Shown: positions 1-64,000 of the stretch, one piece after another
Layout of the letters: each line of letters opens with the position of its first letter
Numbering within the stretch: the stretch's first letter is position 1
Source: an uncultured Thermoleophilia bacterium
GTDB lineage: Bacteria > Actinomycetota > Thermoleophilia > UBA2241
Assembly (NCBI GenBank): GCA_963790185.1
Contig: CAWBNR010000007.1
Location: forward strand, 14,832-78,831
DNA length: 64,000 bases
Reading direction: 5' to 3'
The notes under the pieces: model-generated
Databases searched by the model: none
Told to the model about the DNA's origin: nothing
The model's input: only the letters and a program-made list of their open reading frames with translations
Translations under genes and position numbers: made by a program

Positions 1-25
1 CGAACACGCAAGGTTCGTGTCAAAC

Positions 26-515
26 ATGACGGGCGAAGTAGCTGGGATGCTCAATGGATTTCAGCGGGCCCACAGGGAAATGTCCGTCAAAACCAAGCGA
101 GACAACGTCAAATTCGTGACCGATCTGTCAACGGAAGTGTCCGGAGTGCTCACAGGCTTTCACCGGGCCCAGGCAGAGATGGCTGCGAATATGCAGGAGA
201 GAGAACCAAGCGTTCGTGGCCAACACGGCAAGGGCCGTCTCAGGGCTGCTGAACGGATTTCACGATGCACGTTCCCAGATGGCCAGGACATCCCAATCTG
301 AACGAAATCAGTTTGTCACTGGCCTGAAGAAGTCGGTCAAAGGGATGAGACAGGAAGTCGCCGAGGATTTGGCCGGTGCACGGCAGGCCTGGAATGGCCC
401 ATCGCCGGCGATGCAGAAGGCCAAACAGGAAGAGGAACGAAAAGCCAGTGTGGTCGCAGAACAAAAGGCCAAGGCTGACAGCCGAACTGAAGGCGAGGGC
501 GGAAGCGGAGCATAA
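26..515 (+). CDS. 33-residue-repeat protein, GvpC-like gas-vesicle surface protein (split into ORFs 17-301 and 216-515 by an apparent 1-nt indel near 206)
   Basis: Three tandem ~33-aa repeats with motif V-x-G-x-L-N/T-G-F-x-x-A-x-x-x-M...F-V-T/A. The repeats continue in register only if the reading frame shifts at ~206. Sits at the head of a gvp cluster where gvpC is found in Serratia/cyanobacterial-type clusters. Confidence 0.4.
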
Positions 516-636
516 GGCAAGGGCCGAAGCCGAGTTCAGAGCAAAGGAAGCCTCGGAAAGAGAAAAGCAGGAACAAAGCAAGAAGAAGACACAAAGGTGA
601 CACCAAAAGCGAGTGAGCGCAAATCAGAGGTCGACG

Positions 637-988
637 ATGACTGACATGACGGTCGGGCATGCAGAAGTGACAGAGCTAACGTGCTCTTTCTGTGGCGGCA
701 CGGGAAAAGATCCGTTCGGGATAATGTCTTGGATCTCATCGTGCTGCGTATGTGGTGGCAAGGGTACGGTGAGAATTCGGAGACCCTACACCAGGTGCGC
801 TCACTGTCAGGGGACGGGAGCGATCAAGACCTTCACCTGTACAGCCTGCAAGGGCACAGGTTACGTCCCGCTTCCGTCACACCCGACCTCTACTTGCCCG
901 GAATGCCACGGGTCTGGGGACGACGGTTCCAATTCCTGCAATGACGTGTCTCAAGTGCAAGGGAAGGGGATTCGTTGCTCAGATTTGA
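637..988 (+). CDS. DnaJ-type zinc-finger protein (six CxxCxGxG repeats, no J-domain); apparent frameshift near 925
   Basis: Repeats CSFCGGTGKD, CCVCGGKGTV, CAHCQGTGAI, CTACKGTGYV, CPECHGSG, and in the shifted frame CLKCKGRGFV ending at 986-988. AGAGG ribosome-binding site before the ATG at 637. Confidence 0.55.
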
Positions 989-1246
989 ATATGCTGAAGC
1001 GCCTTGCGAATGACGATCATGTTCAATAGCGCTTCAGGATCAATGGACCAAAAGGTTGCATCATAACGAGACATTGTCGGAAAACCCCGGGCATCAGATG
1101 GTGCGCTGACGCGGTCATCTTCATTCACGTTCAGTATAACCCTGGACTCGGTGGGCAGGATAGCCCGACTGGCCGGCTCAGCAGGTCATCGGCGTTATCC
1201 CGTGTGTCGAGTGACCACACATCAACCAAAGGAAACGGAACAAACC

Positions 1247-2225
1247 ATGAGCGGCAGCAAATCGAATACTGCAACTGTGGCTCCAGAGATGATCCGGCCA
1301 GAGGGTGACGACGTAGAGCCCGTGCCGAGTGAACAGTTTGTGTGCACCCCACATGTAAAAGACTTGGCTGACCGAGCAATGGCTTACCTGGCGGTGGGTT
1401 ATTCGGTGCATTTTGCGGGAGCAGCAGGGACCGGCAAGACCACTCTCGCTTTTCACGTGGCGGCCAAGTTGGCGCGGCCCGTTATTCTCATCCACGGGGA
1501 TGATGAGTTCGGGAGTTCCGATCTGGTAGGGCGGGATTCAGGGTACCGCAAATCCAAGCTGGTGGACAATTTCATTCATTCTGTGGTCAGGACAGAAGAG
1601 GAGATGCGAAGTTTCTGGGTAGACAATCGTCTCACCACCGCGTGCCGCGATGGTTACACCCTCATTTATGATGAGTTCACTCGCTCCAGACCGGAGGCGA
1701 ACAACGTGCTTCTGAGCATTCTGGAGGAAGGGATTCTGAATCTTGCCCAGTCTGCGCAGGACGGGCGAAGGCTACCTTGAGGTTCATCCGTCGTTCAGGG
1801 CCATTTTCACGTCCAATCCCGAAGAGTACGCCGGGGTCCATAAAACCCAGGACGCCCTGCTGGATCGTATTATCACCATCAATGTGGATCATTATGACCG
1901 CGAGTCCGAAGTGCAAATTACGATGGCAAAGTCGGGTCTTCCCAGGTCTGATGCGGAAGTGATCGTGGACATCATCAGGGAGTTGCGTCTTGTGGGGGTA
2001 AACAACCACAGGCCCACGGTACGGGCGTGTATAGCCATAGGGAAGGTGCTGGCGCATCTCGGTGGCACATCTCAGGCTAACGATGAGATCTTCAAATGGA
2101 TCTGCCGAGATGTCCTTACCCGGGACACGGTAAAGGTCACCAGGGGCGGCGAACCGCTCATGCCAAAGAAGGTGGACGAAGTCATCCACAGAGTGTGCAA
2201 GCAGAAGATGGATCGTCGCCTTTAG
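1247..2225 (+). CDS. gvpN: Gas vesicle protein GvpN, AAA+ ATPase (CbbQ/NirQ family); 1-nt frameshift near 1745
   Basis: Walker [10 protein letters not shown], then [14 protein letters not shown] followed in the +1 frame by [29 protein letters not shown], which is typical of GvpN. AAGGAAA ribosome-binding site before the ATG at 1247. Confidence 0.85.
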
Positions 2226-2241
2226 TCGAAGGGGAAAAACG

Positions 2242-2574
2242 ATGAGCATTCGAACCAAATCAAACCTGCGAGGCCTAAGAGATATTCGCACCCGATCGGG
2301 GAGAGTAGATCGCTCTGACGTGCCCTATATGGCGTACATGAAAATCAGCTGCCTCGAAATGGAGAGGGCCAGACGAGACCAAGAGAAGTTCAGCGCACAA
2401 GCGAGAATCAGAAACCTTGATAAGCGGCTGGAAGAAATTGACCTGGAAAAAGGCGACCTTTTGGTGCGCCTTGGGGAGCGTCCTTCCTCCCGTCCCTTAA
2501 GGTCAACCGGTGGCTCGCACCAACCCGTCCGAGCCAGAGGCGAATCCAAACCTGGATTCACGATCAAGTACTGA
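2242..2574 (+). CDS. Hypothetical coiled-coil protein inside gvp cluster
   Basis: ORF with GGGGAAAA ribosome-binding site; charged, coiled-coil-like sequence (EMERARRDQEKFSAQARIRNLDKRLEEIDLEKGDL). Confidence 0.35.
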   Translation: MSIRTKSNLRGLRDIRTRSGRVDRSDVPYMAYMKISCLEMERARRDQEKFSAQARIRNLDKRLEEIDLEKGDLLVRLGERPSSRPLRSTGGSHQPVRARGESKPGFTIKY

Positions 2575-2761
2575 GATTCTTGGAAAGGGCCTAGGTGTGG
2601 AGCATGTCAGCGGTGAAAGGTTTCAAACAACTACGAACAAGCAGCAGTATCAAGGGGTTCCGGTCATGCCGGCACTCGACTGCAGTCCCCTTGGAACTCC
2701 TCGATAGAGGGAGAATTCGGGCGAGCGAAACAAGGCGGCTCTGGGAAGGGGTCCGGCAGTC

Positions 2762-3097
2762 GTGGCTTCACTGCAAGGCAGACGTTCCCGGAAGTATCCG
2801 GCACAAATGAGTTCCCAGGTCAGGGAGTCAATCGACCGTCAAAAAGAGAGTGCGACAGGGAGGTTAGCCGTGAAAGTCAATTGTATATCTTGCGGCCACA
2901 GTATTTCGCTCGACGAAGCGTACGACGACTTCTCGGGATATGTAAAATGCTACGTCTGCGGGGGAATGCTGGAAATCAAGACTGCAGACGGAAAGCTTAG
3001 CTCTGTCAACTTGGCAGGGGTTGCGCTGTCGGGGCAGAGCAACCAAGCGGCTCCGTCGATGTCAAGTCGACAGTCAGGGCAGGGGCACCTGACCTGA
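2762..3097 (+). CDS. Zinc-ribbon hypothetical protein inside gvp cluster
   Basis: CISCGH...CYVCGG: two CxxC pairs ~20 aa apart. An alternative start M lies at 2807. Confidence 0.4.
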   Translation: MASLQGRRSRKYPAQMSSQVRESIDRQKESATGRLAVKVNCISCGHSISLDEAYDDFSGYVKCYVCGGMLEIKTADGKLSSVNLAGVALSGQSNQAAPSMSSRQSGQGHLT

Positions 3098-3183
3098 GAG
3101 AGTCCCCTACTCAAGGGAAAAACACCAGAGCACGAACACGTCATGTGCCGAACTCCGGGCAATGAGAGCGCTGCGTCACAATA

Positions 3184-4002
3184 ATGGTTCAGAGGACCCA
3201 CGGTGCAACTTCCGACAAACGAATGGGATGTGCCATGCAAAAGTCAGGCAAAAGCCCACACGGCTTAACAGGTCGATATCTGTACGCCATTGTTCCCGGA
3301 TCCGATGCAAAGTCATACGGTAGCCTTGGTATCAACGGTGGCAGGGTCTATACGATTGCGGACGGTGACGTCGCGGCGGTGGTCAGTGACGTCATCAACC
3401 AGAAGATTCGGCCGGAGAGGCGTCATTTTGCGGCCCACCAGGGAGTGTTGAAGAAGCTCATGGAGGACACCGACCTTCTGCCCATGTCCTTCGGCATCAT
3501 TTCAGCAGGACCTAAGGCTGTTCGTGGACTTCTGGAGCGCAATCGCGACACGATATCCACAGAACTCAAACGGGTCTCCGGCAAAGTGGAAATGGGACTC
3601 AAGGTATCGTGGGATGTTCCCAACATCTTCGAATACATGGTCAGCACCCATACCGAATTGCTGGAAGCCCGGGATCGATTGCTCAGCAGCCAACGCAAGT
3701 CTACGCAGGATGAAAAGATCGCGATCGGCCAACTGTTTGAAGATCTGCTCAACGCTGACAGGGAACGCCACACCGGCGTGGTAGAGGAAGTAATCGGCCC
3801 CAAGTGCTTCGAAGTCAAGCGAAACAAATGCCGCGATGAACGGAATGTCATGACTTTGGCTTGTCTCGTTGGCCGCAGCTTTCTTTCGGATTTTGAAAGC
3901 GTGGTACTCGAGGCTGCAAGCCTTTTTGATGACAATTTTGCGTTTGATTACAACGGGCCCTGGGCACCTCACAACTTTGTCCAGGTTGAGGTGGAAGTGT
4001 AG
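3184..4002 (+). CDS. gvpF: Gas vesicle protein GvpF/GvpL family
   Basis: YLYAIVP motif near the N-terminus and a C-terminal GPWAPHNF; length and position between gvpN and gvpG. Possible internal starts at 3223 and 3235. Confidence 0.8.
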   Translation: MVQRTHGATSDKRMGCAMQKSGKSPHGLTGRYLYAIVPGSDAKSYGSLGINGGRVYTIADGDVAAVVSDVINQKIRPERRHFAAHQGVLKKLMEDTDLLPMSFGIISAGPKAVRGLLERNRDTISTELKRVSGKVEMGLKVSWDVPNIFEYMVSTHTELLEARDRLLSSQRKSTQDEKIAIGQLFEDLLNADRERHTGVVEEVIGPKCFEVKRNKCRDERNVMTLACLVGRSFLSDFESVVLEAASLFDDNFAFDYNGPWAPHNFVQVEVEV

Positions 4003-4057
4003 GCGGCTGTTGCCTCACGCAACAGGCTCCTGGGACCACGCGAGGGTGGAGCACACG

Positions 4058-4315
4058 ATGCTATTAGTAGACGATATTCTGCTGTTTCCCTTCAAGGGCC
4101 TGCTGTGGGTTTTTGAAGAAATTTACGAGGCCGCGGAACAAGACCGCCGTGAGGAAGGCGAGAGGATCACCCATGAACTCCAGGACCTCTACGCGATGTT
4201 GGAACGCGGCGAGATAGATGATACGGAATTCGATCGACGAGAGGTTGAACTTCTGGACCGGCTTGATCGATTCCAAGAGAGTTTATCCCCTGCTGAAGAG
4301 GATGAAGAGGATTAA
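4058..4315 (+). CDS. gvpG: Gas vesicle protein GvpG
   Basis: MLLVDDILLFPFKGLLWVFEEI matches the GvpG N-terminal signature; acidic C-terminal tail. Confidence 0.7.
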   Translation: MLLVDDILLFPFKGLLWVFEEIYEAAEQDRREEGERITHELQDLYAMLERGEIDDTEFDRREVELLDRLDRFQESLSPAEEDEED

Positions 4316-4469
4316 GAGGATTCAGAGGGATATGACCACTGAGTCTCTTCGATTGAAGCGAGGGGCGATCGACGCATCATGAATCTGAATCTGAGTTTGT
4401 GGTTTGTGGCATGAGCCATGACGGTTCAAGAGGTATGGAGTGCTATTCATATAGACCGCGGAGAAGGTC

Positions 4470-4691
4470 ATGCGAGATCTGGAACTGGACGACGTTGAAC
4501 ATGTCACCTTATGCGAGGCTCTCGATCGGGTCCTGAACAAGGGAGCTGTCGTGGTTGGCGAAGTGACGATTTCCGTCGCGAATGTGGATCTGATCTACTT
4601 GGGCCTGCAGCTGGTCCTTACGTCTATAGACACATCTGAAACGATGAAGATGTCGTCGCGTCAAGCTGAAGCGCCTTGTGAAGGATTGTAA
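4470..4691 (+). CDS. GvpA/GvpJ/GvpM-family small hydrophobic gas vesicle protein
   Basis: LCEALDRVLNKGAVVVGEVTISVANVDLIYLGLQLVLTSIDT follows the GvpA-fold pattern (LDRxLDKG...I(S/A)SVET). Confidence 0.65.
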   Translation: MRDLELDDVEHVTLCEALDRVLNKGAVVVGEVTISVANVDLIYLGLQLVLTSIDTSETMKMSSRQAEAPCEGL

Positions 4692-4763
4692 TTCTGAAGA
4701 GCGTTCGTGGGCAATCGACCAAAAGATTGCAACATGACGACACGTTGTTGGAAAGAAGCGGCC

Positions 4764-5204
4764 ATGGGGTCACGCTCTGACAAGTTTATTTCCCGCAACG
4801 CCAGCGTCCTATCATCAGCACTTGTTGCCGGAGAAGACATGCAACGCATGCACGTTCGCAAAATCGATTCTGACTCCCTTGATGAATTCGCGAGGGTGAT
4901 GAGAGGCCAGGGGAACGGGAGTGTCGGCCGAGCGCGGCAGTCCGGGCGGCTGGAGCTCGATCAGAAAAGCGTCAAGAACGGCTTGGGGCAACTCGTCTTG
5001 ACTCTGGTCAGACTGCTCCATGAGCTACTGGAACGTCAAGCCATTCGACGCATGGAGTCCGGTTCGTTGTCCGACGCTGAACTGGAGCGGCTTGGCACAA
5101 CTTTGATGTTGCAAGCGCAGGAAATTGAGCGACTCCGCAAGGAATTCGGCTTGGAGGAAGAAGACCTGAATCTCGATCTAGGCCCCCTCGGAAAGCTCGT
5201 GTGA
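4764..5204 (+). CDS. gvpK: Gas vesicle protein GvpK
   Basis: LVLTLVRLLHELLERQAIRRME is the GvpK signature. The ORF opens at 4707; the start is chosen at the internal M. Confidence 0.75.
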   Translation: MGSRSDKFISRNASVLSSALVAGEDMQRMHVRKIDSDSLDEFARVMRGQGNGSVGRARQSGRLELDQKSVKNGLGQLVLTLVRLLHELLERQAIRRMESGSLSDAELERLGTTLMLQAQEIERLRKEFGLEEEDLNLDLGPLGKLV

Positions 5205-5216
5205 GGAGACCCCAAA

Positions 5217-5483
5217 ATGCCTATGCAAAGGTCCACTCGTCATTCGATAGAGAGCACGAATCTCGCTGATCTGCTTGAGCGAATACTGGACAAGGGAATT
5301 GTCATCGCCGGAGACATCAAAATCAGACTTGTCGACGTGGAACTCCTCACTATTCAGATAAGGCTGGTGGTGTGTTCCGTAGACAAGGCCAAGGAAATGG
5401 GCATGGATTGGTGGGTCAATAATCCGGCATTCCAGAGGCAAAAAATTGAGGCCGTGGCACCGCAACCGACCGGTGCTGCCTGA
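5217..5483 (+). CDS. GvpA/GvpJ-family gas vesicle structural protein (GvpJ-like, C-terminal DWW)
   Basis: LADLLERILDKGIVIAGDIKIRLVDVELLTIQIRLVVCSVDKAKEMGMDWW. Confidence 0.7.
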   Translation: MPMQRSTRHSIESTNLADLLERILDKGIVIAGDIKIRLVDVELLTIQIRLVVCSVDKAKEMGMDWWVNNPAFQRQKIEAVAPQPTGAA

Positions 5484-39600: not shown

Positions 39601-39611
39601 CAGGAGATCCC

Positions 39612-40286: not shown

Positions 40287-40304
40287 GCTGCGGTCTGACG
40301 GTCG

Positions 40305-40937: not shown

Positions 40938-40959
40938 GACCGCGGCTGCCCGCGGTCCC

Positions 40960-42276: not shown

Positions 42277-42434
42277 GCAGTCACCTCCCGGCAGGACTAT
42301 CGGCCAGAGGCGCTCGGCCCTGAAGTCGCGGTGCGCGGGAGCCGAAGCGTCTGTCGCGCGCCGTGATCCGCTCGCGAACGCGCCGCCGCGGGTGACGGCC
42401 CCGGGGCGCGGACGCGAAGCAGCGGGTACAATGG

Positions 42435-47047: not shown

Positions 47048-47084
47048 GGCGCCGCCGGCCCCTGCGCGCGCGACGGCGCGGGCC

Positions 47085-48281: not shown

Positions 48282-48314
48282 AACCCGCACGGCGCTCTCG
48301 GACCGGGAGGGACC

Positions 48315-49612
<1,298 letters not shown>

Positions 49613-50524: not shown

Positions 50525-50542
50525 CCGGTCGCTGAGCCGACC

Positions 50543-51996: not shown

Positions 51997-52166
51997 CCGA
52001 GGCGCGCTGCCTCCCGCGATCACCGGCGAGCCGCACGGCACGCGAGCAGGGAAGGCCGCGCAGCGCGCGAATCAGTCGGGACAGGGTGCCGACGGTCGGC
52101 GTGCGGTCCGGATGGCCCGTCACATCGCGACCCCGGTGGCGAGCCGAAGGGATGGGGCGAGCAGTC

Positions 52167-52577
52167 ATGGCAGCGACACGTCGCAAGGCGCGGAGGGCGA
52201 CTGCGCGGCCACGGCTGCGCTGGGGCCGCTTCCTGGTCCTGGCGCTCGTCCTCGTCGCGGCCGCGCTCTACGCCGAGCCTCTGCGCGCCTTCTTCGTGCA
52301 GCAGGACCGCTACGAGAAGGCATCGACCGCGCTCGCGAGCGCGCAGGCCGACAATCGGGTGCTGCACGCCGAGATCGAGCGCCTCGGGACCGACTCGTAC
52401 GTCGCGGAGCGGGCGCTCTCCGACCTGCAGATGGTGCCGCGCGGCATGCAGGCGTTCGTGGTCAAGGGCCTGCCCGGCGAGTCCGCGGCGGCGGGCGGCG
52501 GCGGGCAGGCCGTCGTGAAGGACACGCTCTCCCCGCTTGACCGTCTCACCGATCTCTGGCGGACGCTCTCCGAGTAG
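52167..52577 (+). CDS. Septum formation initiator (FtsB/DivIC-like)
   Basis: Basic N-terminus, single TM helix, then coiled coil (ASAQADNRVLHAEIERL). Position after eno matches the conserved actinobacterial arrangement. Confidence 0.55.
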   Translation: MAATRRKARRATARPRLRWGRFLVLALVLVAAALYAEPLRAFFVQQDRYEKASTALASAQADNRVLHAEIERLGTDSYVAERALSDLQMVPRGMQAFVVKGLPGESAAAGGGGQAVVKDTLSPLDRLTDLWRTLSE

Positions 52578-52610
52578 CTCTCGCGCGGCGCGAACCAGAC
52601 GCTCGCGCAC

Positions 52611-53234
52611 GTGCTCTGCATCCGCGCGCCGCATGACGCGCTCGCGCACGGCGTGTACGCTGGCGCCATGGTCGAAGACCTCCCGTCTGATCCGCTCTCC
52701 CGCGTGGGTATCGCGGACGGTGACGAGCGCGTCGTCAGGGGCCAGATCGGTCGCCGGCCGAGGCCGATGAGCGCGGTGGCGGCCCGTTGCCCGCACGGAT
52801 CCCCGGCCGCCGTCGAGGTCCTCCCGGCCGACGAGCGCGGCCGTCCGTTCCCGACCCTGTACTACTTGACGTGTCCGACGGCCGTCGCCGCACTGTCGCG
52901 GCTGGAGAGCGCCGGTGGTGTCGAGCTCTTCCAGCGGGCCGTCGACGGTGACGATGGCCTGCGGGTGTCGCTTGCGCAGGCGGTGCAGGAGACATGCGAG
53001 CGGCGCGCCGAGCTGGCGCGCACGCTTGGGCTCACGGCCCTCGACGGCGGCGCCTCGCTTAGGACCGGCATCGGAGGTGTCGCCGACGCGTCACGCCTCA
53101 AGTGCCTGCACGCGCACGCGGCCCACGGGCTGGCGCGGCCTCCGTATCGCCTGGGCGCCGAGGTCATCGCCGCGGCGGCCGGGCTCTGGTGTGACGACCG
53201 CCGTTGTGCGGCCTACGCTGAGGACGTCCCGTGA
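52611..53234 (+). CDS. DUF501-family protein
   Basis: FPTLYYLTCP ... KCLHAH motifs; conserved partner upstream of ppx in Actinobacteria. An alternative start lies at 52668. Confidence 0.6.
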   Translation: MLCIRAPHDALAHGVYAGAMVEDLPSDPLSRVGIADGDERVVRGQIGRRPRPMSAVAARCPHGSPAAVEVLPADERGRPFPTLYYLTCPTAVAALSRLESAGGVELFQRAVDGDDGLRVSLAQAVQETCERRAELARTLGLTALDGGASLRTGIGGVADASRLKCLHAHAAHGLARPPYRLGAEVIAAAAGLWCDDRRCAAYAEDVP

Positions 53235-54178
53235 AGGTCGCTGTCGTCGACCTCGGCACGAACACGTGCAGGCTGCTGCTCGCCGACGTCGTCGACGGGC
53301 GGATCGCGGCCGTTGCGTCGCGCGAGACCCAGGTGGTCCGGCTCGGGCAGGGGGTCGACGGCCGCGGGCGCCTCGCGCCCGCGGCCGTCGACCGCACCCT
53401 CGCCTGCCTGGCGGGCTACACGGCCGCGGCCGCGGCGTACCGCCCCGAGCGCTCGCTGCTCTTCGCCACGAGCGCCCTGCGTGACGCGGCCGACGGCGAG
53501 CGGTTCCTCCGCCGGGCGGAGGCCGAGCACGGCTGGCCGTGCGAGGTCATCGAGGGCGACCTCGAGGGCCGGCTCGCTTTTCGCGGCGCGGTCGCCGGTC
53601 TCGCGCGCCCGGCGCCGGGGCGTCTGCTGGTCGTCGACATCGGCGGCGGCAGCACCGAAGTCATCGTCGGCGACGGCGTCTCCGGCGAGGCGGTCGCCGT
53701 GCGCAGCGTCGACGTCGGCGCCGTGCGCCTGACCGAGCGCTGCTTCGCCGACGATCCGCCGAGCGACGCGCAGTGGGCGGCGGCGAGCGCGCTCGTCCGG
53801 AGCGCGCTCGCCGCCGCCTCCGCCGAGGTCGTCGCCGCGGCCGGCGCGCCCGCCGTCGGGATCGGCGTCGCCGGCACGTTCACCACCCTTGTCGCCTACG
53901 TGCTCGGCCTGCGCGAGTTCCGGCGCGAGCTCGTCGACGGCTACGAGCTGAGCCGCGAGACGATCCGCGCCGCGATCGACCGCTTCCGGCGGCTCACGAG
54001 CGCCCAACGGGCCGAGCTGCCCGGCATTCGGCCCGGCCGCGAAGACGTGATACCGGCCGGCGCCCTGATCGCCGCCGAGGCGTGTCGCGCCTTCGGTCTC
54101 GACGCTCTGCGCGTCTCCACCTCGGGTATCCTCGAGGGCGCCGGCCTCTGGGTGGCCGAGTGCCCCGAGTCCGGCTGA
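53231..54178 (+). CDS. ppx: Ppx/GppA-family exopolyphosphatase
   Basis: VAVVDLGTNTCRLLLA (actin-like ATPase N-terminus), VVDIGGGSTE; GTGA overlap with the DUF501 stop. Confidence 0.75.
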   Translation: MKVAVVDLGTNTCRLLLADVVDGRIAAVASRETQVVRLGQGVDGRGRLAPAAVDRTLACLAGYTAAAAAYRPERSLLFATSALRDAADGERFLRRAEAEHGWPCEVIEGDLEGRLAFRGAVAGLARPAPGRLLVVDIGGGSTEVIVGDGVSGEAVAVRSVDVGAVRLTERCFADDPPSDAQWAAASALVRSALAAASAEVVAAAGAPAVGIGVAGTFTTLVAYVLGLREFRRELVDGYELSRETIRAAIDRFRRLTSAQRAELPGIRPGREDVIPAGALIAAEACRAFGLDALRVSTSGILEGAGLWVAECPESG

Positions 54179-54226
54179 GCCCCGAGTCCCGGCGACGGTC
54201 GCCGCCCGCGTATACTCTGCGCTGAT

Positions 54227-54265
54227 GCCGGAGTGGCGGAACTGGTAGACGCCGGGGACTTGAAA
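54227..54265 (+). repeat. 39-nt direct repeat identical to the 5' half (acceptor/D-arm/5' anticodon stem) of the tRNA at 56669; putative att site / tRNA fragment
   Basis: GCCGGAGTGGCGGAACTGGTAGACGCCGGGGACTTGAAA is identical at both sites. The sequence diverges afterwards and no complementary 3' acceptor strand follows. Confidence 0.6.
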
Positions 54266-54695
54266 TGCGTCAGGCTGGTCCCAATGGGTTCTATTGCAGC
54301 CCGTCTCAGGCTCGCCCTCATCAGGCTCGTGACACTGCGTCAGTCGCTGTCCCACCGTCTTCCGACGACCACGTTTGCACTCTGGTTTGCAGCAATCGGT
54401 CAGCTGCGCTGATGGCGATACGAGGGCATTGGACCCGGCTGCCCAGTGATTGATTTACGCCGGTCCGCACTTGGGGAACACTCTGAAACGGAAGCTGAGG
54501 GAGGGCCGCTACCTCCCTGATGTGAGAGCCAGATTCGAGCAGATGCTCCTTGAGCTGGGAGGCCGGCGCGCGTCAGTTACTCGCGAGAGCCGGAAAGTCA
54601 AGTCCTAGCCGCCCTCCTTGTTCGTCATCCCCGAAGAGAGTGATACTGAAGAAGGCGGGACAAGGGGCGCTTCGCCAGGACAGGAGGGAGCCGTC

Positions 54696-55724
54696 ATGGG
54701 CGGAATCACCATCACCATCAACTTCGGTCCACACTGGACTGAGTCGTTCGGCGGTTCCCTTGAGTCTGAGCCTCCAGAGAGTGACTGGGTCGCAATCGAC
54801 TTCGAGACGGCAACGGGACAGCGGGACAGCGCATGCGCGGTGGGGTTGGCTCATGTTCGTCAGGGCAAGGTCGTGGCGGTCGAGAGGGCCTTGATACAGC
54901 CGCCGGGGAACGACTACTTTGGCTACAACATCATGGTACATGGCATCGAGCCAACGATGACCGAGACTGCGCCGACGTTCGAGGACATCTGGCCCTTGCT
55001 GTTCCAGCGAATCCACTCCAAGCCCGTGGTCGCTCACAACGCCAGCTTCGACTTCAGCGTGCTGCGACATTGCCTTGATATGGCGGACATCGAGTACCCA
55101 GAGCTGGACTACTACTGCACGCGGGTCTTCTCCCTGATGCGCTGGCCAGAGCTGCCAAGCCACGCGCTTGAACTGGTCGCCGACCGCTGTGCCGTCGAGT
55201 TTGGCCACCACGATCCCGGTGAGGACGCACGGGCCTGCGCTGAGATTGCTCTCCACATCGCGCGGGAGTGCAGCGCGGGCTGTCTTGAGGAAATCGCCGC
55301 CGCCTGCGGGGTCCGGACCGGAAGGCTTCATCCCGGCAGGTACGACGCTTGCAGCTACAGCAGCCATGGCTCCCGCCAGCAGCGCCGTGAGAGTTCCAGA
55401 CTGACAGAAGCGGATGTGGCTTCACTGGAGTGCGGCGAGTTCGATGAGGCTCATCCGTTCTACTGCGCCGAGGTCATCTTCACAGGCACGCTGCAGAGCA
55501 TGGAGCGTGGAGCCGCGCAGCGGCTGGTCGAGAACGTGGGCGGGTGTGCGCCAGACCGTGGGGTCACAAAGCACGCTGATTATCTGGTCGTCGGAGACGT
55601 TGATATGCGGAAGCTGCGGGCTGCTGAAGCGGTGACCAAGAAGATGGAGAGGGCGATGCAGTTGCGGGCAGCGGGCAAGGACATCGAGATTATCGGCGAG
55701 CGAGAGTTCCTCGAACTGCTCTGA
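54696..55724 (+). CDS. DnaQ-like DEDDh 3'-5' exonuclease fused to a C-terminal BRCT domain
   Basis: Exo I AIDFETATG, Exo II AHNASFDFSVL, Exo III HHDPGEDARACAEI. BRCT AEVIFTGTL...VTKHADYLVVGD. AGGAGGGA ribosome-binding site. Confidence 0.75.
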   Translation: MGGITITINFGPHWTESFGGSLESEPPESDWVAIDFETATGQRDSACAVGLAHVRQGKVVAVERALIQPPGNDYFGYNIMVHGIEPTMTETAPTFEDIWPLLFQRIHSKPVVAHNASFDFSVLRHCLDMADIEYPELDYYCTRVFSLMRWPELPSHALELVADRCAVEFGHHDPGEDARACAEIALHIARECSAGCLEEIAAACGVRTGRLHPGRYDACSYSSHGSRQQRRESSRLTEADVASLECGEFDEAHPFYCAEVIFTGTLQSMERGAAQRLVENVGGCAPDRGVTKHADYLVVGDVDMRKLRAAEAVTKKMERAMQLRAAGKDIEIIGEREFLELL

Positions 55725-55747
55725 GAGGGTCGGGAGGTCAGCGGCAT

Positions 55748-56512
55748 ATGGACTGGCAGTTTGGCTACAACTGCACGCACTTCGTCCCCTGTCTGGACAA
55801 GTGCCGTGTGAAGATAGACCGCTACAACAAGCGGTCGGATTTGCTTGCGGACAGGTGGTTGCTGACTCGCGAAGTCCTCATGTACACGGGCTGGTCCTCA
55901 GAGGAACTTGTCGAGCGCGTAGAGCGGGGCGAAGTAGCGGCCAAGAAGGTGGACAAGCCCATCAACCCGGAGCGGGACGGCTATCTGAGGTCGTGCTTGC
56001 CTTGCTCATGGGAGTGGGACGACTGCAGCATGGCCATCACCGGCGGCGTCTGTGAGTGGTATGAACCGCACGGCCAGGCGCACATAGGCTGCATAGCCGA
56101 CCTTCGGAACTGGCCCGAAGAGCATCCCAACACGGCCTACAGTCCCTCAGTCGAGGACTGGAGGTTGATAGAAGACCGGCTGTGCTGGCGGTCTGTGGGC
56201 GTTGCCGGTCCAACAGACGGTCCCCTAGTCATTGGTGGCGTGAACGTGTGGAGTCGCCGCCCGTGGCGTCCTCGTCGCTCCGGTCGTCCTCCAGAACCCG
56301 TGCTGGCTGTGATAGCCGACTCCTCTGGCCAGCGAAGCCAGATGCCTATCTTCGTCATCTCGGTGCGAGATGAAGCAAGCGACCGGACTCGCAAGGTCAC
56401 GTTCGCTGCCGACGAGGCTTCCCATGACACTTGGGAGTTCTACGTGCCACGCGGCGCGGAACTCAGCATTGGAGACGAAGAGGACCGTGTTGCCAAGGAC
56501 CGGAACGAGTAG
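55748..56512 (+). CDS. Cysteine-rich hypothetical protein (9 Cys in the first 140 aa), no recognisable family
   Basis: GGGAGG ribosome-binding site. Follows the exonuclease gene by 23 nt with the same lower GC. Confidence 0.4.
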   Translation: MDWQFGYNCTHFVPCLDKCRVKIDRYNKRSDLLADRWLLTREVLMYTGWSSEELVERVERGEVAAKKVDKPINPERDGYLRSCLPCSWEWDDCSMAITGGVCEWYEPHGQAHIGCIADLRNWPEEHPNTAYSPSVEDWRLIEDRLCWRSVGVAGPTDGPLVIGGVNVWSRRPWRPRRSGRPPEPVLAVIADSSGQRSQMPIFVISVRDEASDRTRKVTFAADEASHDTWEFYVPRGAELSIGDEEDRVAKDRNE

Positions 56513-56668
56513 CTCAGAGCGTCCTCCTTCCGGCTGCCCAAAGCCTGCGGACTTGCGCAGAAGGAGCGCGTGTTTCAAAGACGCCATTGGTCGTGTGGTC
56601 CCGGTACGCGTTTGCAGTCTGTCTGCAGATGAGCGGCTTTGGTCTACTCCAGCGTATGATTCGATCGT

Positions 56669-56758
56669 GCCGGAGTGGCGGAACTGGTAGACGCCGGGGA
56701 CTTGAAAATCGCCAGTCCCGCAAGGGACGTCCGGGTTCGACTCCCGGCTCCGGCACCA
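56669..56758 (+). tRNA. Type-II tRNA (long variable arm, Leu-like D-arm). Anticodon loop reads CU-UGA-AA (Ser-UGA in the canonical register), but the anticodon stem has two mispairs, so identity is uncertain
   Basis: Acceptor GCCGGAG/CTCCGGC, T-arm CCGGG-TTCGACT-CCCGG, variable arm GTCCC-GCAA-GGGAC, encoded CCA. Confidence 0.65.
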
Positions 56759-56909
56759 TGCGTCGTCCGCGATCTCGCCACCGCCCATCCGCGCCTTCCG
56801 TACCTTCGCGTCTTCCGCCCGCCCCTCTCGCGCACTATCATGGTGTTAGCGGCAGCGAGGAGGGGGCTCGACGCGATGTCCGCGTCGCCGGGTGGCTGCC
56901 GGGACAAGC

Positions 56910-57824
56910 ATGAAAGGGGACACCGTGGGCTACATGATCGCGCTCGTTGTCATCATCATCGTCATCGCGCTTCTGGTGGCGGGCATCCGTATCGTGCGCC
57001 CCACGAGCCGTGGTCTCGTCGAGCGGCTGGGCAAGTACAACCGCTTCGCCGGCCCGGGCTTGCACATCATCATCCCGCTGATCGAGCAGATGTACCGTGT
57101 CGACATCCGCGAGGCGCTCGTCGACGCGCAGCCGCAGACCATCATCACGAACGACAACCTGAACGCCCGCGTCGACGCGCAGGTCTACCTCAAGGTCAAG
57201 GCCGACGAGGAGAACGTCAAGGCGTCGCAGTACAACGTCGCCCAGTACGAGCGCCAGATCGTGAACCTGGCCCGCACCACGCTCCGTAACATCATCGGCA
57301 CCATGAGCCTGAAGTCGGCGAACAGCGAGCGCGGCCGGATCAACGAGGAGCTGCGCTCGACGCTCAAGGTCGAGACCGGGAGCTGGGGCATCGAGATCCT
57401 CCGCACTGAGCTCAAAGAGATCGACCCGCCGGCCGACGTGCAGGAGACGATGAACAAGGTCGTCAAGGCCGAGAACGAGAAGATCGCGGCGATCGACTAC
57501 GCCACGGCGCGCGAGACGCAGGCCGACGGCGAGCGGCGCGCCTCGATCCAGCAGGCGGAGGGTATCAAGCGGGCGCGCGTGCTGGCGGCCGAGGGTGAGG
57601 CCGAGGCGATCAAGCTGGTGAACGAGGCCGCCGACCACTACTTCGTCGGCAACGCACAGGCGCTGCGGCGCATCGAGGCCGTCGAGCGCGCCCTCTGGCA
57701 GAACGCCAAGGTGGTGCTGCCGAGCGACGCCGAGCTGGTCAACGTGATCGGCGACCTCGGCGGCCTGACGCCGATGCCGAAGGCCGGCGCGCCGTCACCG
57801 CCGCCGCCCACGAAGAAGAAGTGA
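56910..57824 (+). CDS. SPFH/band-7 (stomatin/prohibitin-like) membrane protein with Pro/Lys-rich tail
   Basis: N-terminal TM helix, then an SPFH core (RGLVERLGKYNRFAGPGLHIIIPLIEQMYRVDIRE...). Confidence 0.75.
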   Translation: MKGDTVGYMIALVVIIIVIALLVAGIRIVRPTSRGLVERLGKYNRFAGPGLHIIIPLIEQMYRVDIREALVDAQPQTIITNDNLNARVDAQVYLKVKADEENVKASQYNVAQYERQIVNLARTTLRNIIGTMSLKSANSERGRINEELRSTLKVETGSWGIEILRTELKEIDPPADVQETMNKVVKAENEKIAAIDYATARETQADGERRASIQQAEGIKRARVLAAEGEAEAIKLVNEAADHYFVGNAQALRRIEAVERALWQNAKVVLPSDAELVNVIGDLGGLTPMPKAGAPSPPPPTKKK

Positions 57825-57843
57825 CGCCTGCCGCCGCGCCCAC

Positions 57844-58692
57844 TCAGGCGGTCCGCCGGCCGAGCCGGCGCCAGGCCAGCCCGCGGCGCGGCGCGAAGAA
57901 GAACGCCACGACGAACAGGGCGGTCGCGGTCAGCACGATGGCGGCGCCCGAGGCGACGTCGAGGTAGTAGCTGAGGTAGAGGCCGACGATGCTCGAGACC
58001 ACGCCGACGAGCGCGGCGGTGAGCATCATCGTCGGCAGCCGCCGCGTCAGGAGCGACGCCGTCGCCCCCGGCGTCACGAGCAGCGCCGCGACGAGACCCA
58101 CGCCGACGGTCTGCAGCGACACCACGATGGTGAGCGCCAGGAGCACGAGCAGCGCCAACAGCACGAGGTTCGGTCTCCGGCCCAGCATGTGCGCGAGCAC
58201 GGGGTCGAACGAGGCCAGGAGCAGCTCGCGATAGAGCGCGGCGACCGCTGCCAGCACCGCCACGGCCAGCCCAGCCGTCAGCCACACGTCGGTCGTCGAC
58301 ACCCCGAGCACGTCCCCGAAGAGGATGTGCGTCAGGTCGGTCGCGTACGAACCCGTCGTGCTGATGAGGAGGACCCCCAGGGAGAGGGCCGCCGCGAAGA
58401 GGATGCCGATGGCCGTGTCCTCGCGCACGGCGCCGTGTCGGGAGAGGAAGCCGATGCCGAGCGCGACGAGCAGCGCCGCGACCAGGGCGCCGGCCAGCAG
58501 GTTCACGCCGGCCAGATAGGCGAGGGCGATGCCGGGGAGTACGGCGTGGGCCAGGGCGTCGCCGAGGAACGCCATCGAGCGCAGCACGACGTAGCAGCCG
58601 AGCACGGAGCAGACGAGCCCCACGAAGACCGCCGCCACGAGCGCGCGCTGCATGAAGGCGAGGGCGAAGGGCTCGGTCAGCCAGTCGATCAC
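57844..58692 (-). CDS. znuB: Metal (Zn/Mn) ABC transporter permease (ZnuB/MntB family)
   Basis: Multi-TM ABC-3 family sequence; GTG start chosen just after the znuC stop. Confidence 0.7.
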   Translation of the reverse strand: MIDWLTEPFALAFMQRALVAAVFVGLVCSVLGCYVVLRSMAFLGDALAHAVLPGIALAYLAGVNLLAGALVAALLVALGIGFLSRHGAVREDTAIGILFAAALSLGVLLISTTGSYATDLTHILFGDVLGVSTTDVWLTAGLAVAVLAAVAALYRELLLASFDPVLAHMLGRRPNLVLLALLVLLALTIVVSLQTVGVGLVAALLVTPGATASLLTRRLPTMMLTAALVGVVSSIVGLYLSYYLDVASGAAIVLTATALFVVAFFFAPRRGLAWRRLGRRTA

Positions 58693-58711
58693 GGCGTCCT
58701 CCGCGTGCTTG

Positions 58712-59526
<815 letters not shown>

Positions 59527-59530
<4 letters not shown>

Positions 59531-60495
59531 CGCAGCGCCTCAACGATGCGCAGCGTGTCGTGGCGGAGCAGCTCGATGAACGTCGCCGCTCCGCCGCCCG
59601 GCTCGCTCAGGGAGTGGACGCGGAGGTCGTCGACGACGCGGATCCCCGTCTCGCGCGCGATCTGGCGGCTGAGCCGGGGGTTCTCGCCGATGTCGACGAA
59701 GACGGCCTTCACGCCGGTCGCGCGCACGGTGGCGATCAGCTCGGCCAGGTCGCGCGCGCTCGGGGTGTCGCCGCTGCTGACGCTGGGGATCACGGCGCCG
59801 ACGATGCGGAGCCCATAGCGGTCGGCGTAGTACCCGTGGCTGACGTGGTTCATGACGAGCTGCCGGTCGGCCGGCGGGATGGTCTCGATCTGCTCGGCGA
59901 TCCAGCGGTCGAGCTCGTCGAGCTCCGCGATGTACTGGTCGGTGTTGCGCCGGTACTCGCCGGCGCCGGCCGGGTCGAGCTCGATGAGCGCGTCGCGGAT
60001 GTTCTCCACGTAGCGCATCGCGAGGGTCGGGTCGAGCCAGAAGTGCGGGTCGACCTGGGCCTCATGGCCGTCGTTGGCCGCGTCGTCCTCGTGCGTGGGC
60101 TCATCGGGCTGCGGTGTGCGCGGGGCGATGCCCGCGGCGGCCTCGACGATCGGCACGTCGCCGCCCGCCTCGCGCACCATGTCGGCGAGGCGCCCTTCGA
60201 GCCCGGCCCCGTTCAGGATCACGAGATCGGCCTCGAGCACCGCGCGCAGGTCCGCGGGGGTCGCCTCGAAGGCGTGCGGGTCAGTGTCCGGCGGGATCAG
60301 CGCCGAGACGGCGACGCGATCTCCGGCCACGTTGCGCGTCAGGTCGGCGAGGAAGCCCGCGCTCGTCACGACTTGGAGGCGCTCGTCGCCGGCGACCTCG
60401 GCGGCGCCGCACGCGGAGTTCAGGCCGCCGAGCGTGACGAGCACGAGCGCCACGAGGGTCGAGGTGAGCGCCGCGCGCCGCGCGGCCGCATTCAC
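59527..60495 (-). CDS. znuA: Metal ABC transporter substrate-binding lipoprotein (ZnuA/TroA family)
   Basis: Lipobox LNSAC, an acidic/His-rich loop (PTHEDDAANDGHE), and a TroA-like fold. GTG start overlapping the zur stop (GTGA). Confidence 0.7.
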
Positions 60496-60977
60496 CGCCG
60501 CGCTCCCGTTGGTGTCGCCGGGCGCGCGGCAGCGCCGCCCCGGCTCCGGTCTCGCTCCTGACACGCCGCGCAGACGCCGCTCAGCTGCAGGAGGTGCTGC
60601 TCGATCGAGAAGCCGGTCTCCCGGGTCGCCGCCACGATCAAGCCGGAGACATCACAGTCGGTGAACTCGGCGACTCTGCCGCATCTGTCGCAGACCACGC
60701 TGTGACCGTGGTGCGTCTCGGCGGGGACGAAGGTCTCGCAGTGGCCGTCGCCGTGCACTCTCCTGATGGCCCCGAGGTCACTCAACAGGTCGAGCGTGCG
60801 GTAGACGGTGGTCAGCCCGAGGTCGGGACACCGCGCCCGGCTGGCGTCGAACACCTGCAGCGCGCTGAGGGCCCCGCTCGCGTGGGCCAGCGCCTCGACC
60901 ACGGCGCGGCGCTGGCGCGTCAGGCGAAGGCCGCGAGCGCCGAGGCGGGTGGCGATGTCCGTCTCGTCGAGTCTCAA
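60492..60977 (-). CDS. zur: Fur-family zinc uptake regulator (Zur)
   Basis: Winged-helix N-terminus, HHGH..CDRCG..C..C metal sites; heads the zur-znuACB operon. Confidence 0.75.
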   Translation of the reverse strand: MRLDETDIATRLGARGLRLTRQRRAVVEALAHASGALSALQVFDASRARCPDLGLTTVYRTLDLLSDLGAIRRVHGDGHCETFVPAETHHGHSVVCDRCGRVAEFTDCDVSGLIVAATRETGFSIEQHLLQLSGVCAACQERDRSRGGAAARPATPTGARR

Positions 60978-61100
60978 CCGAGCCTCCTCTGCAAGTGAAA
61001 ACCATTTTCAGTAGAGACGCAGACTATACCTCGACCGGCGTCCCCGCAAGGGATGGGGTCCCGAGCAAGGGTGGGGTCCCGGGTCTCGGCGCAGCCGACG

Positions 61101-61778
61101 TCAGGGCTGCGACAGCGGGCAGGCGGCGAAGCAGATGCCGCAGACGCTCTCGGGCAGATCGCCGTACGTCGTCATGTGGTGGCGGCAAGCGTCGGCGTCG
61201 AAGAGCCTCGAGCGCGGCATGCCCGCGCGCCAGCGTACGTCGCGGCCGCATCCGGCAGGGCAGGCGTCGACGCACGCACGGCACCCACCACAGTGTCCTT
61301 CGACGATCGGGGCGCCCACAGGCAGCGAGAGGTCGGTGAACACGGTGGCGAGGCGGACGGCCGGGCCGAAGGCCGTCGAGACGAAGAGCGCGGTCTTGCC
61401 GATCCACCCGAGACCGGCTTGCGTGGCAGCGGTCTTGTGCGGGAACGGTGCGCGGTCGTTGTGGCCGGCCTCGTCCGCGGAGGTCGCGGGGATCGCAACG
61501 GCCTGCTGACCGTGATCCCTCAGGGCGCACGCGAGGGTGGCGGTCGCGCCTTCGAGGGCGGCGTTCACGCGATGGTACTCGTCGCGGTACTCGGCGGTGG
61601 GGCCGTGTCGCAGCCCGCGGACGACCCCTGGCTCGAGACGCATGAGGAGCGAGACGGCGATCGGCAGCTCCGGCGCCAGCGGATCGAGCCCTGGGTCGTT
61701 TGCGGCGACGCCCCATGCCGCCACGTCCCTGCTCCTCAGGAGTCGTCCGATCGTGTGCCGGTCGAGCACGTGCAGCAT
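61101..61778 (-). CDS. 4Fe-4S cluster protein, QueG-like (epoxyqueuosine-reductase family C-terminal module)
   Basis: CGGCRACVDACPAG and CGICFAACP ferredoxin motifs; start at ATG 61778. Confidence 0.4.
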   Translation of the reverse strand: MLHVLDRHTIGRLLRSRDVAAWGVAANDPGLDPLAPELPIAVSLLMRLEPGVVRGLRHGPTAEYRDEYHRVNAALEGATATLACALRDHGQQAVAIPATSADEAGHNDRAPFPHKTAATQAGLGWIGKTALFVSTAFGPAVRLATVFTDLSLPVGAPIVEGHCGGCRACVDACPAGCGRDVRWRAGMPRSRLFDADACRHHMTTYGDLPESVCGICFAACPLSQP

Positions 61779-62112
61779 GGGTCTGCCCCTCTCGACGGTG
61801 CGCCGGGTGGACCGGCACGGCAGGTCACCTAGATGGTGGCATCCCGGTTCGAGGAGTCGCAATGGACGGCCGCACCGACTTGGCCCTTCCACTTGTCCCT
61901 TCTGGACAGTCCCGCCGCCGTTCCGGATGACCTCGTGCGACGCAGGGACATCGGTCGTTTCGGAACGCCGCCCTGCGCCCGCTCCCGGAGGGGAAGGTTT
62001 GCGAACCTCGCCATCGCACCACACTAGGACCAGTCCAGTCCGATATATCGAGGAGGTTGTCCTGAAGGGGACGGTCTGCGGTGGCGGATCGTCCCCTTCG
62101 CCTGGGCTGGGG

Positions 62113-64000
62113 TCACTGCGGGCGGAAACGTCGCAGTCTGAGGCTGTTGCTGACGACCGTGACGCTGGACAGCCCCATGGCCGCCGCCGCGAAGATGGGG
62201 TCGAGCAGGATTCCGAAGACGGGGTAGAAGACGCCGGCCGCGAGCGGGATGAGGGCCACGTTGTAGGCGAAGGCCCAGAAGAGGTTCTGCTTGACGACCG
62301 CTATGGTGCGTCGCGACAGGCTGATGGCGGCGGCGACACCGCGCAGGTCCCCCGAGATGAGAGTGACGTCGCCGGCTTCGACGGCGACGTCGGCGCCCGT
62401 GCCGAGCGCGACGCCGACGTCGGCCTGCGCCAGCGCCGGCGCGTCATTGATCCCGTCGCCGACCATGGCCACCCGGCGTCCTTCCGCCTGCAGGCGCTGG
62501 ATCTCGCCGGCCTTCTCGTGCGGAAGCACCTCGGCGCGCACGTCGTCGAGGCCGACCTCGCGCGCGATCGCCGCCGCGGTGCGGCGGTCGTCGCCGGTCA
62601 GCATGATCACATCGAGACCCAACTCCCGGAGCCGACGCACGCCCTCGGCCGATCCCTCTTTGACCCGGTCGGCGATGGCCAGCGCGCCCGCGGGCCGGCC
62701 GTCGACGCGTGCGAAGACCAGGGTCGCGCCCGTCTCGCGCCGCGCCGCGCCGCGCCGCTCGAGTTCGTCGAAGCCGCCTTTCTCGGCGGCGAAACGAGCG
62801 CTGCCGACCTCGACGAGGCGGCCGTCCACGCGCGCCCGGACGCCGTGGCCGGCGAGCGCCTCGAAATCGCTGAAGGCCGACGGCTCCAGTCCGCGCTCCT
62901 CAGCGGCCTCGAGCACCGCTCGCGCGAGCGGGTGGTCGCTGCCGCGTTCGGCGCCGGCGACGAGACGGAGCAGCTCGGCGGCGCTCAGGCCACCGGCTGC
63001 GCTCGTGCCGTCGCCCTCCGTGCCGCCGTCACCGTCGGCGACAAGCACCTCGACCACGGCCGGCCGGCCCTCCGTGATCGTCCCCGTCTTGTCGAGCACG
63101 ATCGTGTCGAGCTTCTGTGCCGTCTCGAGGGCGGCGCCGTCGCGGATGAGGATGCCCTGCTCGGCGCCCTTGCCCGTCCCGACCATGATGGCCGTGGGGG
63201 TCGCGAGGCCGAGGGCGCACGGGCACGCGATGACGAGCACCGCGATGAAGTTGAGCAGCGCGTAGGTGAAGGCCGGCTCGGGGCCGGCGAGCAGCCAGAC
63301 GACCAGGGTGACGAGCGCGATCGCGATCACGATCGGCACGAAGTAGCCGGCCACCACGTCGGCGAGGCGGGCGATCGGCGGCTTCGAGCCCTGCGCCCGT
63401 TCGACGAGCTGCACGATCTGGGCGAGGGCGGTCTCGCTGCCGACCTTGGTCGCCCTGAAGGTGAAGGAGCCGCTCGTGTTGACGGTCGCCCCGATCACCT
63501 CGTCGCCCGGCCCTTTGCCGACGGGCAGCGGCTCGCCGGTCAGCATCGACTCGTCGACCGAGGACGAACCCTCGAGCACGAGTCCGTCGACCGGCACGCG
63601 TTCTCCGGCGCGTACGAGGACGACGTCGCCCGGCACCACGTCGGCGACGGCGATGTCGTACTCGCGGCCGTCACGGACGACGCGGGCCTGGTCGGGCTGG
63701 AGCCTGATGAGGGCCCGCACGGCCTCGCCCGTCTGGCTCTTGGCGCGCGCCTCGAGCAGGCGGCCGAGCAGCACCAGGGTGATGATGATGGCCGCCGAGT
63801 CGAAGTAGACCGCGCCGGTCAGGCCGCGGGCCTCGAACAGCGCGGGGGCGAGGACCACGAGCACGCTGTAGAAGTAGGCGGCCGAGGCCCCCATCGCGAT
63901 GAGCGTGTTCATGTCGGCGGCGCGGTGACGGAGGGCCGCCCAGGCGCCGCGATAGAAGCGCGCGCCGACCCAGAACTGCACCGGGGTCGTGAGCGCCCAG
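62113..64000 (-). CDS. Heavy-metal (Cu+/Ag+-type, CPC motif) translocating P1B-type ATPase, N-terminus beyond window end
   Basis: [29 protein letters not shown] motifs; the ORF runs off the 3' edge of the window. Confidence 0.85.

Follow-up and report, generated by a model that had tools for sequence, protein, structure and literature searches.

Probable consensus errors and an apparent join of two phyla in a 64-kb metagenomic sequence

The sequence analyzed here, referred to as the window, is a stretch of 64,000 nucleotides attributed to an uncultured Thermoleophilia bacterium (assembly GCA_963790185.1, contig CAWBNR010000007.1, positions 14,832 to 78,831). Many of its genes are broken by single-base changes of reading frame. 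Comparison with related sequences indicates that these frameshifts are very probably technical errors in the consensus of a metagenome assembly of low accuracy, most likely built from long reads, and not mutations in the organisms. The plural is intended: the window appears to be a chimera of two unrelated bacteria of different phyla, joined head to tail at positions 30,633-30,635, a point that the first-pass annotation of this DNA had missed. Because the two phyla share the type of lesion and nearly the same mean rate, the errors would lie in the data and not in the cells.

Frame events and the genes they interrupt

Reading frames were mapped with a self-trained codon-usage Viterbi model over six frames, whose segments were spliced into corrected pseudo-proteins and then matched to Pfam models. 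Furthermore, we used our own frameshift-aware protein-to-DNA aligner, which allows frame moves of 1 and 2 nt, together with reference proteins, 2-8 for each gene and mostly 5-8, taken from syntenic loci or homolog searches. For the low-GC left half of the window the syntenic relatives were L166 (ERZ25039495 contig_52606) and L167/L168, L167 being contig_13497; L166 and L167 represent the closest public relative of this half. For the left end of the high-GC half the short-read contig L164 was used. The references agree on the event sites to within a few bases, and one-base gaps are directly visible in DNA alignments to relatives of 85-90% identity. The closest relatives found are about 90% identical at the nucleotide level (L164, L167), and exact look-ups of four intact window proteins (among them livK-like, Mfd and a cyclase) returned no near-identical population in the public collections searched.

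Taken together, the Viterbi map, the frameshift-aware alignments and the DNA alignments lead to a curated total of 60 single-base frame events, 28 in the low-GC and 32 in the high-GC half, which affect roughly 19 genes. The first-pass annotation had counted roughly 40; it was right about the existence of such frame changes and too low in their number. Left out as uncertain were the ends of a TetR gene (~25,070 and ~24,450) and the N-terminus of the MFP gene (24,184). A first blastx screen against stop-to-stop open reading frames (ORFs) of related loci was dropped, as antisense ORFs in GC-rich DNA led to spurious matches. Events suggested by L166 at 20,338, 20,634, 23,794, 27,190 and 27,377 were rejected as well, since the frame of the window is continuous at these places and the L166 genes are split or out of frame. 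L166, a Flye-style contig, indeed has errors of its own: its RND gene is split into pieces of 883, 77 and 98 residues, its MFP gene into 210 and 191 and its aminotransferase gene into 294 and 117, its version of a 796-residue ORF is out of frame after about residue 644, and extra-base errors are present. In the closest-relative contigs (L166/L167) the histidine kinase (HK) is called with 433 residues instead of 492.

Do these frame changes interrupt single genes, or do they mark boundaries between genes? In the corrected pseudo-proteins, Pfam models match over their full span across the frame junctions, namely BKACE (1-274 of 274), BPD_transp_2 (2-269 of 269), AAA_5 (4-138 of 139), ACR_tran (6-1020 of 1021), Sigma54_activat (5-168 of 168), AFOR_N (2-199 of 199) and AFOR_C (5-385 of 385). 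As the models run end to end, the frame changes interrupt single genes, and the split ORFs are not separate ones, just as the first-pass annotation had assumed. The check that it had proposed, whether corrected proteins align with their homologs over the full length, likewise turns out positive. The corrected aldehyde:ferredoxin oxidoreductase (AOR) is identical to its reference P0001 at 586 of 638 positions (92%) over residues 1-639, and the sigma-54 activator reaches 89-90% over residues 1-724 of 725. Identities are 80-86% for kce, 76-83% for livH, 77-82% for eno, 77-91% for the HK, 95% for gvpN, and 72% over 697 residues for the MCP.

The spectrum of the lesions is strikingly one-sided. All of them are 1 nt long, and 55 extra bases face 5 missing ones (about 11:1; binomial p=1e-11). 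An enrichment in homopolymers was not found, as a run of at least four bases lies within 4 nt of 6 of the 60 events, compared to 9-13% of random positions. The first-pass annotation had placed several events in homopolymer runs and named a run of six Gs at 27,415. This run, at 27,415-27,420 on the plus strand in the gene of the 796-residue protein, does contain a real one-base loss, where the three-frame translation passes from frame 1 to frame 0 and reaches a stop at about 27,770. However, it is the only clear homopolymer-associated event, and the association overall stays at chance. Typical contexts are ctg[C]aag and cac[G]acg in eno, and GACC[A]GGG and ATCAG[A]CTC in AOR. One extra base, at 33,436, lies in the spacer between Fer4 and AOR and suggests a process that is indifferent to coding. 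Within the AOR block (31,723-33,518, where the minus strand is coding) A accounts for 5-6 of the 9 extra bases despite a local GC content of about 68%; the bases inserted outside this block show no obvious preference.

The interrupted genes also retain the signature of selection. Substitutions at the three codon positions of AOR amount to 5.9/2.7/14.7%, compared to 3.9/2.4/17.6% in its intact neighbor KorA; the third-position bias is kept, in a test that is blind to very recent inactivation. No premature in-frame stops were found in AOR, Fer4, the sigma-54 activator, gvpN, the PAS protein or the HK when these were projected onto the frames of their relatives. Compared with L164, the density of substitutions inside the AOR block equals that in the clean flanks. 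In the eno block the window deviates at 15 of 162 ortholog-invariant columns, against 5 of 146 in the flanks; eight misplaced codons would produce roughly this excess. We also considered the dense blocks of events as raw-read-like patches with excess substitutions, an idea that found no support in AOR and weak support in eno.

The join at 30.6 kb

The GC content of the window is about 55% over the first ~30.6 kb and about 70% over the remainder up to 64 kb; around 30,600-30,750 it climbs from 0.56 to 0.70 in a span of some 150 nt. The two sides also have different relatives. The low-GC segment (1-30,632) is Desulfomonilaceae-like: the best named homologs of its sigma-54 activator and HK are from Desulfomonile or Desulfomonilaceae, and two long contigs of a single relative run collinear with it, L167 along window positions 1-9.2 kb and L166 along 19.2-30.6 kb. 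The high-GC segment (30,636-64,000) is of Thermoleophilia type. Its intact Mfd (42,435-45,998) shares 72-74% identity with the Mfd of uncultured Thermoleophilia metagenome-assembled genomes (MAGs), in which the order glmU-prs-rplY-pth-dacB-mfd-surA-mazG-eno is kept.

Alignments to L166 and L164, the cut-off of a POR_N domain and the GC step at about 30,600-30,650 place the junction at 30,633-30,635. KorA, read leftwards, ends at position 171 of 231 of the POR_N model (Pfam) at this point. L164, which is about 90% identical to window positions 35,534-30,636 and has the gene order LKR / Fer4-AOR-ThiS-KorA in common with it, carries another 380 nt of KorA beyond 30,636. On the other side, L166 matches the window up to 30,632 and then extends into a GAF-PAS kinase of 834 residues, which in the window breaks off after residue 94. 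No JGI metagenome contig contains a 50-mer that spans the junction. Because of the GC step, the two cut genes and the continuation of each side in its own relatives, these alignments point to an assembly mis-join or to concatenated contig ends and not to a native structure.

Could the junction nevertheless be native, for example as the edge of a large horizontally acquired island inserted into a Thermoleophilia korA? The two parts abut directly, without a spacer of Ns, and their common error profile indicates a common data set, which both would agree with such an origin. An insertion is hard to reconcile with a 15-point GC step within ~100-150 nt and with the truncation of both flanking genes, each of which continues in its own relatives. 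Moreover, the window annotation shows no integrase, tRNA, repeat or insertion sequence (IS) at the 30.6-kb boundary, and the collinearity of the left part with Desulfomonilaceae-like chromosomal contigs spans more than 11 kb. The left part also encodes a sigma-54 activator; such a system is not known in Actinomycetota, and this, too, counts against a native junction, which we consider highly improbable.

The apparent mis-join has parallels. Tools such as GUNC (cited in PMC12313526) deal with the chimeric contigs and contaminated bins that occur in metagenome assemblies. Such cases likewise show an abrupt change in composition and taxonomy, genes cut at the breakpoint and collinearity of each side with its own relatives. 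The window differs from these cases in that its join may stem either from the assembler or from the joining of contig ends when the window was built.

Errors in the data or mutations in the cells

The mean event rate is 0.91 per kb on the left and 0.96 per kb on the right side of the join, and insertions dominate on both. The arrangement of the events differs. A uniform rate fits the left half (dispersion index 1.21, p=0.23; longest clean gap 5.8 kb, p=0.08), whereas the right half is clustered, with a dispersion index of 5.5 and a longest gap of 14.9 kb, neither of which is reached in any of 20,000 simulations. All 32 events of the right half fall within three blocks, in which the density rises to about 1 per 90-170 nt. 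The very uneven distribution reported by the first-pass annotation thus holds for the high-GC half and not for the low-GC half. The distribution would differ along the window because two different sequences were joined.

Is this pattern peculiar to the window? We fetched 80 Thermoleophilia-type loci with Mfd, many of them from the Microflora Danica long-read catalogue, which its authors inspected for Nanopore-associated errors (PMC12313526). Complete copies of eno, pyk, glmU, prs and mfd in these related loci were scored for frame splits. Split genes make up 13 of 140 in Flye-style long-read MAG loci compared to 1 of 93 in short-read loci (Fisher p=0.0098). One long-read locus (L070) has ten events within 1 kb of eno and, adjoining it, a 3.4-kb mfd without any, and another (L008) has eight events in 0.7 kb of a different gene. 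Insertions exceed deletions in eno of the related loci as well, by 10 to 4. We also considered eno as a special hot spot and rejected this, since the relatives show no higher frequency of splits in it than in glmU, prs or pyk. Because related long-read loci show the same pattern, patchy frameshifts are a recurring property of this kind of assembly.

Frameshifts by small indels are a recognized problem of long-read genomics and metagenomics (10.1101/2021.08.23.457338, PMC9262707, PMC8812927). Residual long-read errors are described mainly as errors of homopolymer length (PMC8812927, PMC9262707). In several respects the window agrees with what proovframe (10.1101/2021.08.23.457338), Sereika et al. 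2022 (PMC9262707) and Polypolish (PMC8812927) report: indels of one base break conserved genes up into neighboring ORFs, homology over the full length returns with correction, and errors survive polishing in patches. The public Nanopore/Flye/Medaka MAG loci L070, L008, L009 and L166 show the same thing. The difference to the residual errors described there is that insertions prevail by about 11:1 in the window and are not tied to homopolymers.

Building of the consensus would, on this account, leave single spurious bases, 55 extra and 5 missing, regardless of homopolymers. In the left fragment the errors would remain scattered at ~0.9 per kb, and the right fragment would be nearly all correct save for three short blocks, which likely stem from locally poor read support, failed polishing or patches filled in from few reads. 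The first-pass annotation had itself favored uncorrected long-read indel errors, and this explanation has gained support from the restoration of the genes, the selection signature, the shared rate and the public MAG loci.

Why the errors cluster in the right half is a question of its own. One explanation is that the high-GC contig was largely corrected and that the blocks represent failed correction or fill-in from very few reads, possibly because reads map ambiguously where conserved genes are shared with co-occurring relatives, or because coverage drops locally. The blocks have sharp edges and lie next to long error-free stretches, blocks of the same kind occur in L070 and L008, and short-read polishing is known to leave errors where the alignment of reads is unreliable (PMC8812927). 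On the other hand, nothing in the sequence marks the blocks, as their GC content is not extreme and they contain no repeat; other conserved genes such as prs and rplY are clean, and eno of the relatives is not hit more than glmU, prs or pyk. We regard this explanation as an evenly balanced call.

Several points weigh against consensus errors as the general explanation. The evidence for the errors comes from the assembled sequence alone. Insertions at about 11:1 away from homopolymers are not the textbook Nanopore profile, so that platform and software are uncertain; that the platform was a long-read one we infer from the likeness to public Nanopore/Flye MAGs. A concentration in homopolymers, the classic signature of Nanopore, 454 and HiFi data, was tested for and did not emerge. 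Without a raised substitution density in the AOR block and with a mild rise in eno, the blocks are also unlike raw single reads. Finally, the cause of the three dense blocks is something that we infer, and nothing in the sequence proves it.

What if the genes are truly decaying? Eno, pyk, AOR and others would then be real pseudogenes, at least in the Thermoleophilia organism, a possibility that the first-pass annotation had raised for eno, pyk, AOR and the amidotransferase. The concentration of the high-GC lesions in few genes would suit decay, and pyk might be dispensable, as the two closest relatives lack it at this position. In contrast, enolase is a single-copy core glycolytic gene, and 8-12 independent insertions within 0.7-1.1 kb go along with proteins that are still ~80% (eno) and 92% (AOR) identical to their orthologs. 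The one-sided, stop-free spectrum and the retained selection signature speak against decay: there are no nonsense codons, larger deletions or IS elements, and the codon-position bias is unchanged. Natural bacterial indels are associated with repeats, and they are deletion-biased, as Mira, Ochman and Moran reportedly found in 2001; an 11:1 excess of insertions outside repeats is the opposite of this spectrum. Furthermore, the unrelated left fragment has the same type and rate of lesion, and the pattern is found in long-read MAGs of the relatives and not in their short-read MAGs. Decaying genomes such as those of Mycobacterium leprae or recent symbionts likewise contain many genes interrupted by frameshifts, but they combine mixed lesions (stops, deletions, IS) with relaxed selection and a deletion bias, none of which is seen in the window. 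Real decay is therefore very unlikely, and consensus errors remain the preferred explanation.

Slimmer still is the chance that the extra bases are real in both organisms, either through a hitherto undescribed, insertion-biased mutational process that acts patchwise or as tolerated +1 sites bypassed in expression, or, as a separate matter, that the 30.6-kb junction is a true join of DNA from two phyla. Recoding, in which real extra bases are bypassed by programmed +1 ribosomal frameshifting or transcriptional slippage, would account for the nearly uniform direction (+1) of the events, but the sites number up to 12 in one gene and have neither a common or slippery motif nor a homopolymer, the orthologs are uninterrupted at the same positions, and one event (33,436) lies between genes; for practical purposes, the sequence comparisons exclude it.

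Gene content, event positions and consequences

The low-GC segment comprises a gas-vesicle cluster, an HK/RR pair, a kce-liv ABC transporter region, the MCP, GATase and RND/MFP genes, TetR, the gene of the 796-residue protein, the sigma-54 activator and the first ~94 codons of the GAF-PAS kinase. The gas-vesicle cluster (1-5,480) encodes a gvpC-like repeat protein, a DnaJ-type zinc-finger protein (ZnF), gvpN, two small ORFs, gvpF/L, gvpG, gvpA, gvpK and gvpA. This order is kept in two Desulfomonilaceae/Thermodesulfobacteriota relatives (L167, L168); the PAS protein and a divergent RR/HK pair follow.

For the genes in which the first-pass annotation had given numbers, these were matched or surpassed. 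The gvpC-like gene contains three events (194, 479 and 588), the ZnF gene one (931) and gvpN one (1,743). Further along the segment there is a single event in kce (9,488), two in livM (10,774 and 11,075), one in livH (11,813), two in the MCP gene (17,621 and 18,065), three in the RND gene (21,583, 21,884 and 23,148) and four in the sigma-54 activator (28,286, 28,474, 28,883 and 29,778). The remaining events on this side fall in the PAS protein (6,467 and 7,080), the HK (8,379 and 8,568), the GATase (19,459 and 19,790), the MFP (23,580), the 796-residue protein (27,106, in addition to the G run at 27,415 in the same gene) and the truncated kinase (30,509). On the high-GC side the counts are 8 for AOR, 8 for eno and about 12 for pyk. 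The list of intact genes also stands, with mfd, glmU, prs, rplY, pth, livK, livF, livG, LKR and SDH free of internal events against the same references.

The high-GC segment runs from the KorA fragment through ThiS, AOR, Fer4, LKR, SDH, tRNA-Gln, glmU, prs, rplY and pth to dacB, mfd, a surA-like gene, mazG, eno, a TPR protein, pyk, ftsB/DUF501 and ppx, followed by a small island, a tRNA, SPFH, znuABC/zur and a P-type ATPase. Its first error block (31,723-33,576, minus strand) covers Fer4 and AOR and has 9 extra and 2 missing bases, with events in Fer4 at 33,576 and 33,518, the extra base in the spacer, and events in AOR at 33,044, 33,010, 32,404, 32,318, 32,196, 31,903, 31,837 and 31,723. Every gap of this block is resolved in the DNA alignment of ~90% identity to L164. 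Two pairs of a missing and an extra base compensate each other (33,010/33,044, 34 nt apart, and 33,518/33,576, 58 nt apart), and in each case the shifted part of AOR or Fer4 is short. The Fer4-AOR-ThiS-like cassette (31,265-33,824) shares 83-92% protein identity with cassettes on the GC-rich contigs L161, L162, L163 and L165. Neighboring LptF/G, OEP and MacB genes suggest Gram-negative hosts for the latter, in which ThiF and not KorA comes next; the cassette may have spread laterally.

The second block (48,510-49,225, plus strand) lies within the enolase gene and consists of 8 single-base insertions in 716 nt, at 48,510, 48,658, 48,737, 48,843, 48,916, 48,956, 49,212 and 49,225. Six references agree on these sites to about 6 nt, two of them merging 49,212 and 49,225 into one event of 2 nt, and the catalytic motifs of the enolase are intact once the sequence is corrected. 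The third block (50,888-51,963, plus strand) occupies the C-terminal two thirds of pyruvate kinase, with ~12 insertions and one doubtful deletion in 1.08 kb; six references concur on most of the sites. The events lie at 50,888, 50,982, 51,103, 51,119, 51,279, 51,379, 51,476, 51,573, 51,697, 51,707, 51,810 and 51,898, and the one at 51,963 is doubtful. Both in the window (50,490-51,990) and in more distant Solirubrobacterales/Gaiellales relatives (L054, L068, L063), the pyk gene lies between the TPR protein and ftsB/DUF501; it is missing at that position in the two closest Thermoleophilia loci (L001, L004).

Between the first two blocks extends a clean stretch of 14.4 kb (34,083-48,509) with LKR, SDH, glmU, prs, rplY, pth, dacB, mfd, the surA-like gene and mazG. 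Frameshift-aware alignment to the same reference loci revealed no event in the gene bodies of this stretch; a few events called from just one reference, close to N-termini or within dacB, were discarded as alignment artefacts. Against L164 no coding gaps were found beyond the first block in the part that this contig covers. LKR and SDH match their Pfam models over the full length, and a hidden fusion or frameshift between them was rejected, as they are two overlapping genes, just like in L164. A second clean stretch of 12 kb (52,000-64,000) has no frame event. Frame changes there are ordinary gene boundaries, with Viterbi segments that match the ends and starts of ORFs, and ppx and SPFH align without events.

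Within this second stretch, a region of lower GC content at 54.2-56.9 kb was considered as another join and rejected, as it is a tRNA-flanked island. The island (54,226-56,758; 2.4 kb, GC ~63%) is absent from the relatives L001, L003 and L004 and carries genes for an RNase_T-type exonuclease and a hypothetical protein. On either side lies a copy of a direct repeat of 48 nt (54,226-54,273 and 56,668-56,715, 94% identical) that corresponds to the 5' half of the adjacent tRNA, and the whole looks like a small tRNA-associated island. ARAGORN calls this tRNA Ser(tga), and the relatives carry Leu(taa) at that place.

What does this mean for the organisms? The frame pattern itself is an artefact without biological novelty. 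The uncorrected sequence would lead to wrong gene calls, pseudogene counts, completeness estimates and pathway inferences: it would seem to have no enolase, pyruvate kinase or AOR, and conclusions drawn across 30.6 kb would link genes of two phyla. Public long-read MAGs contain patchy, insertion-dominated frameshift blocks outside homopolymers, which a correction focused on homopolymers would miss; removing them takes homology-guided frameshift correction or a polishing step with accurate reads. The case serves chiefly to caution annotators and to illustrate insertion-biased error blocks that are not bound to homopolymers.

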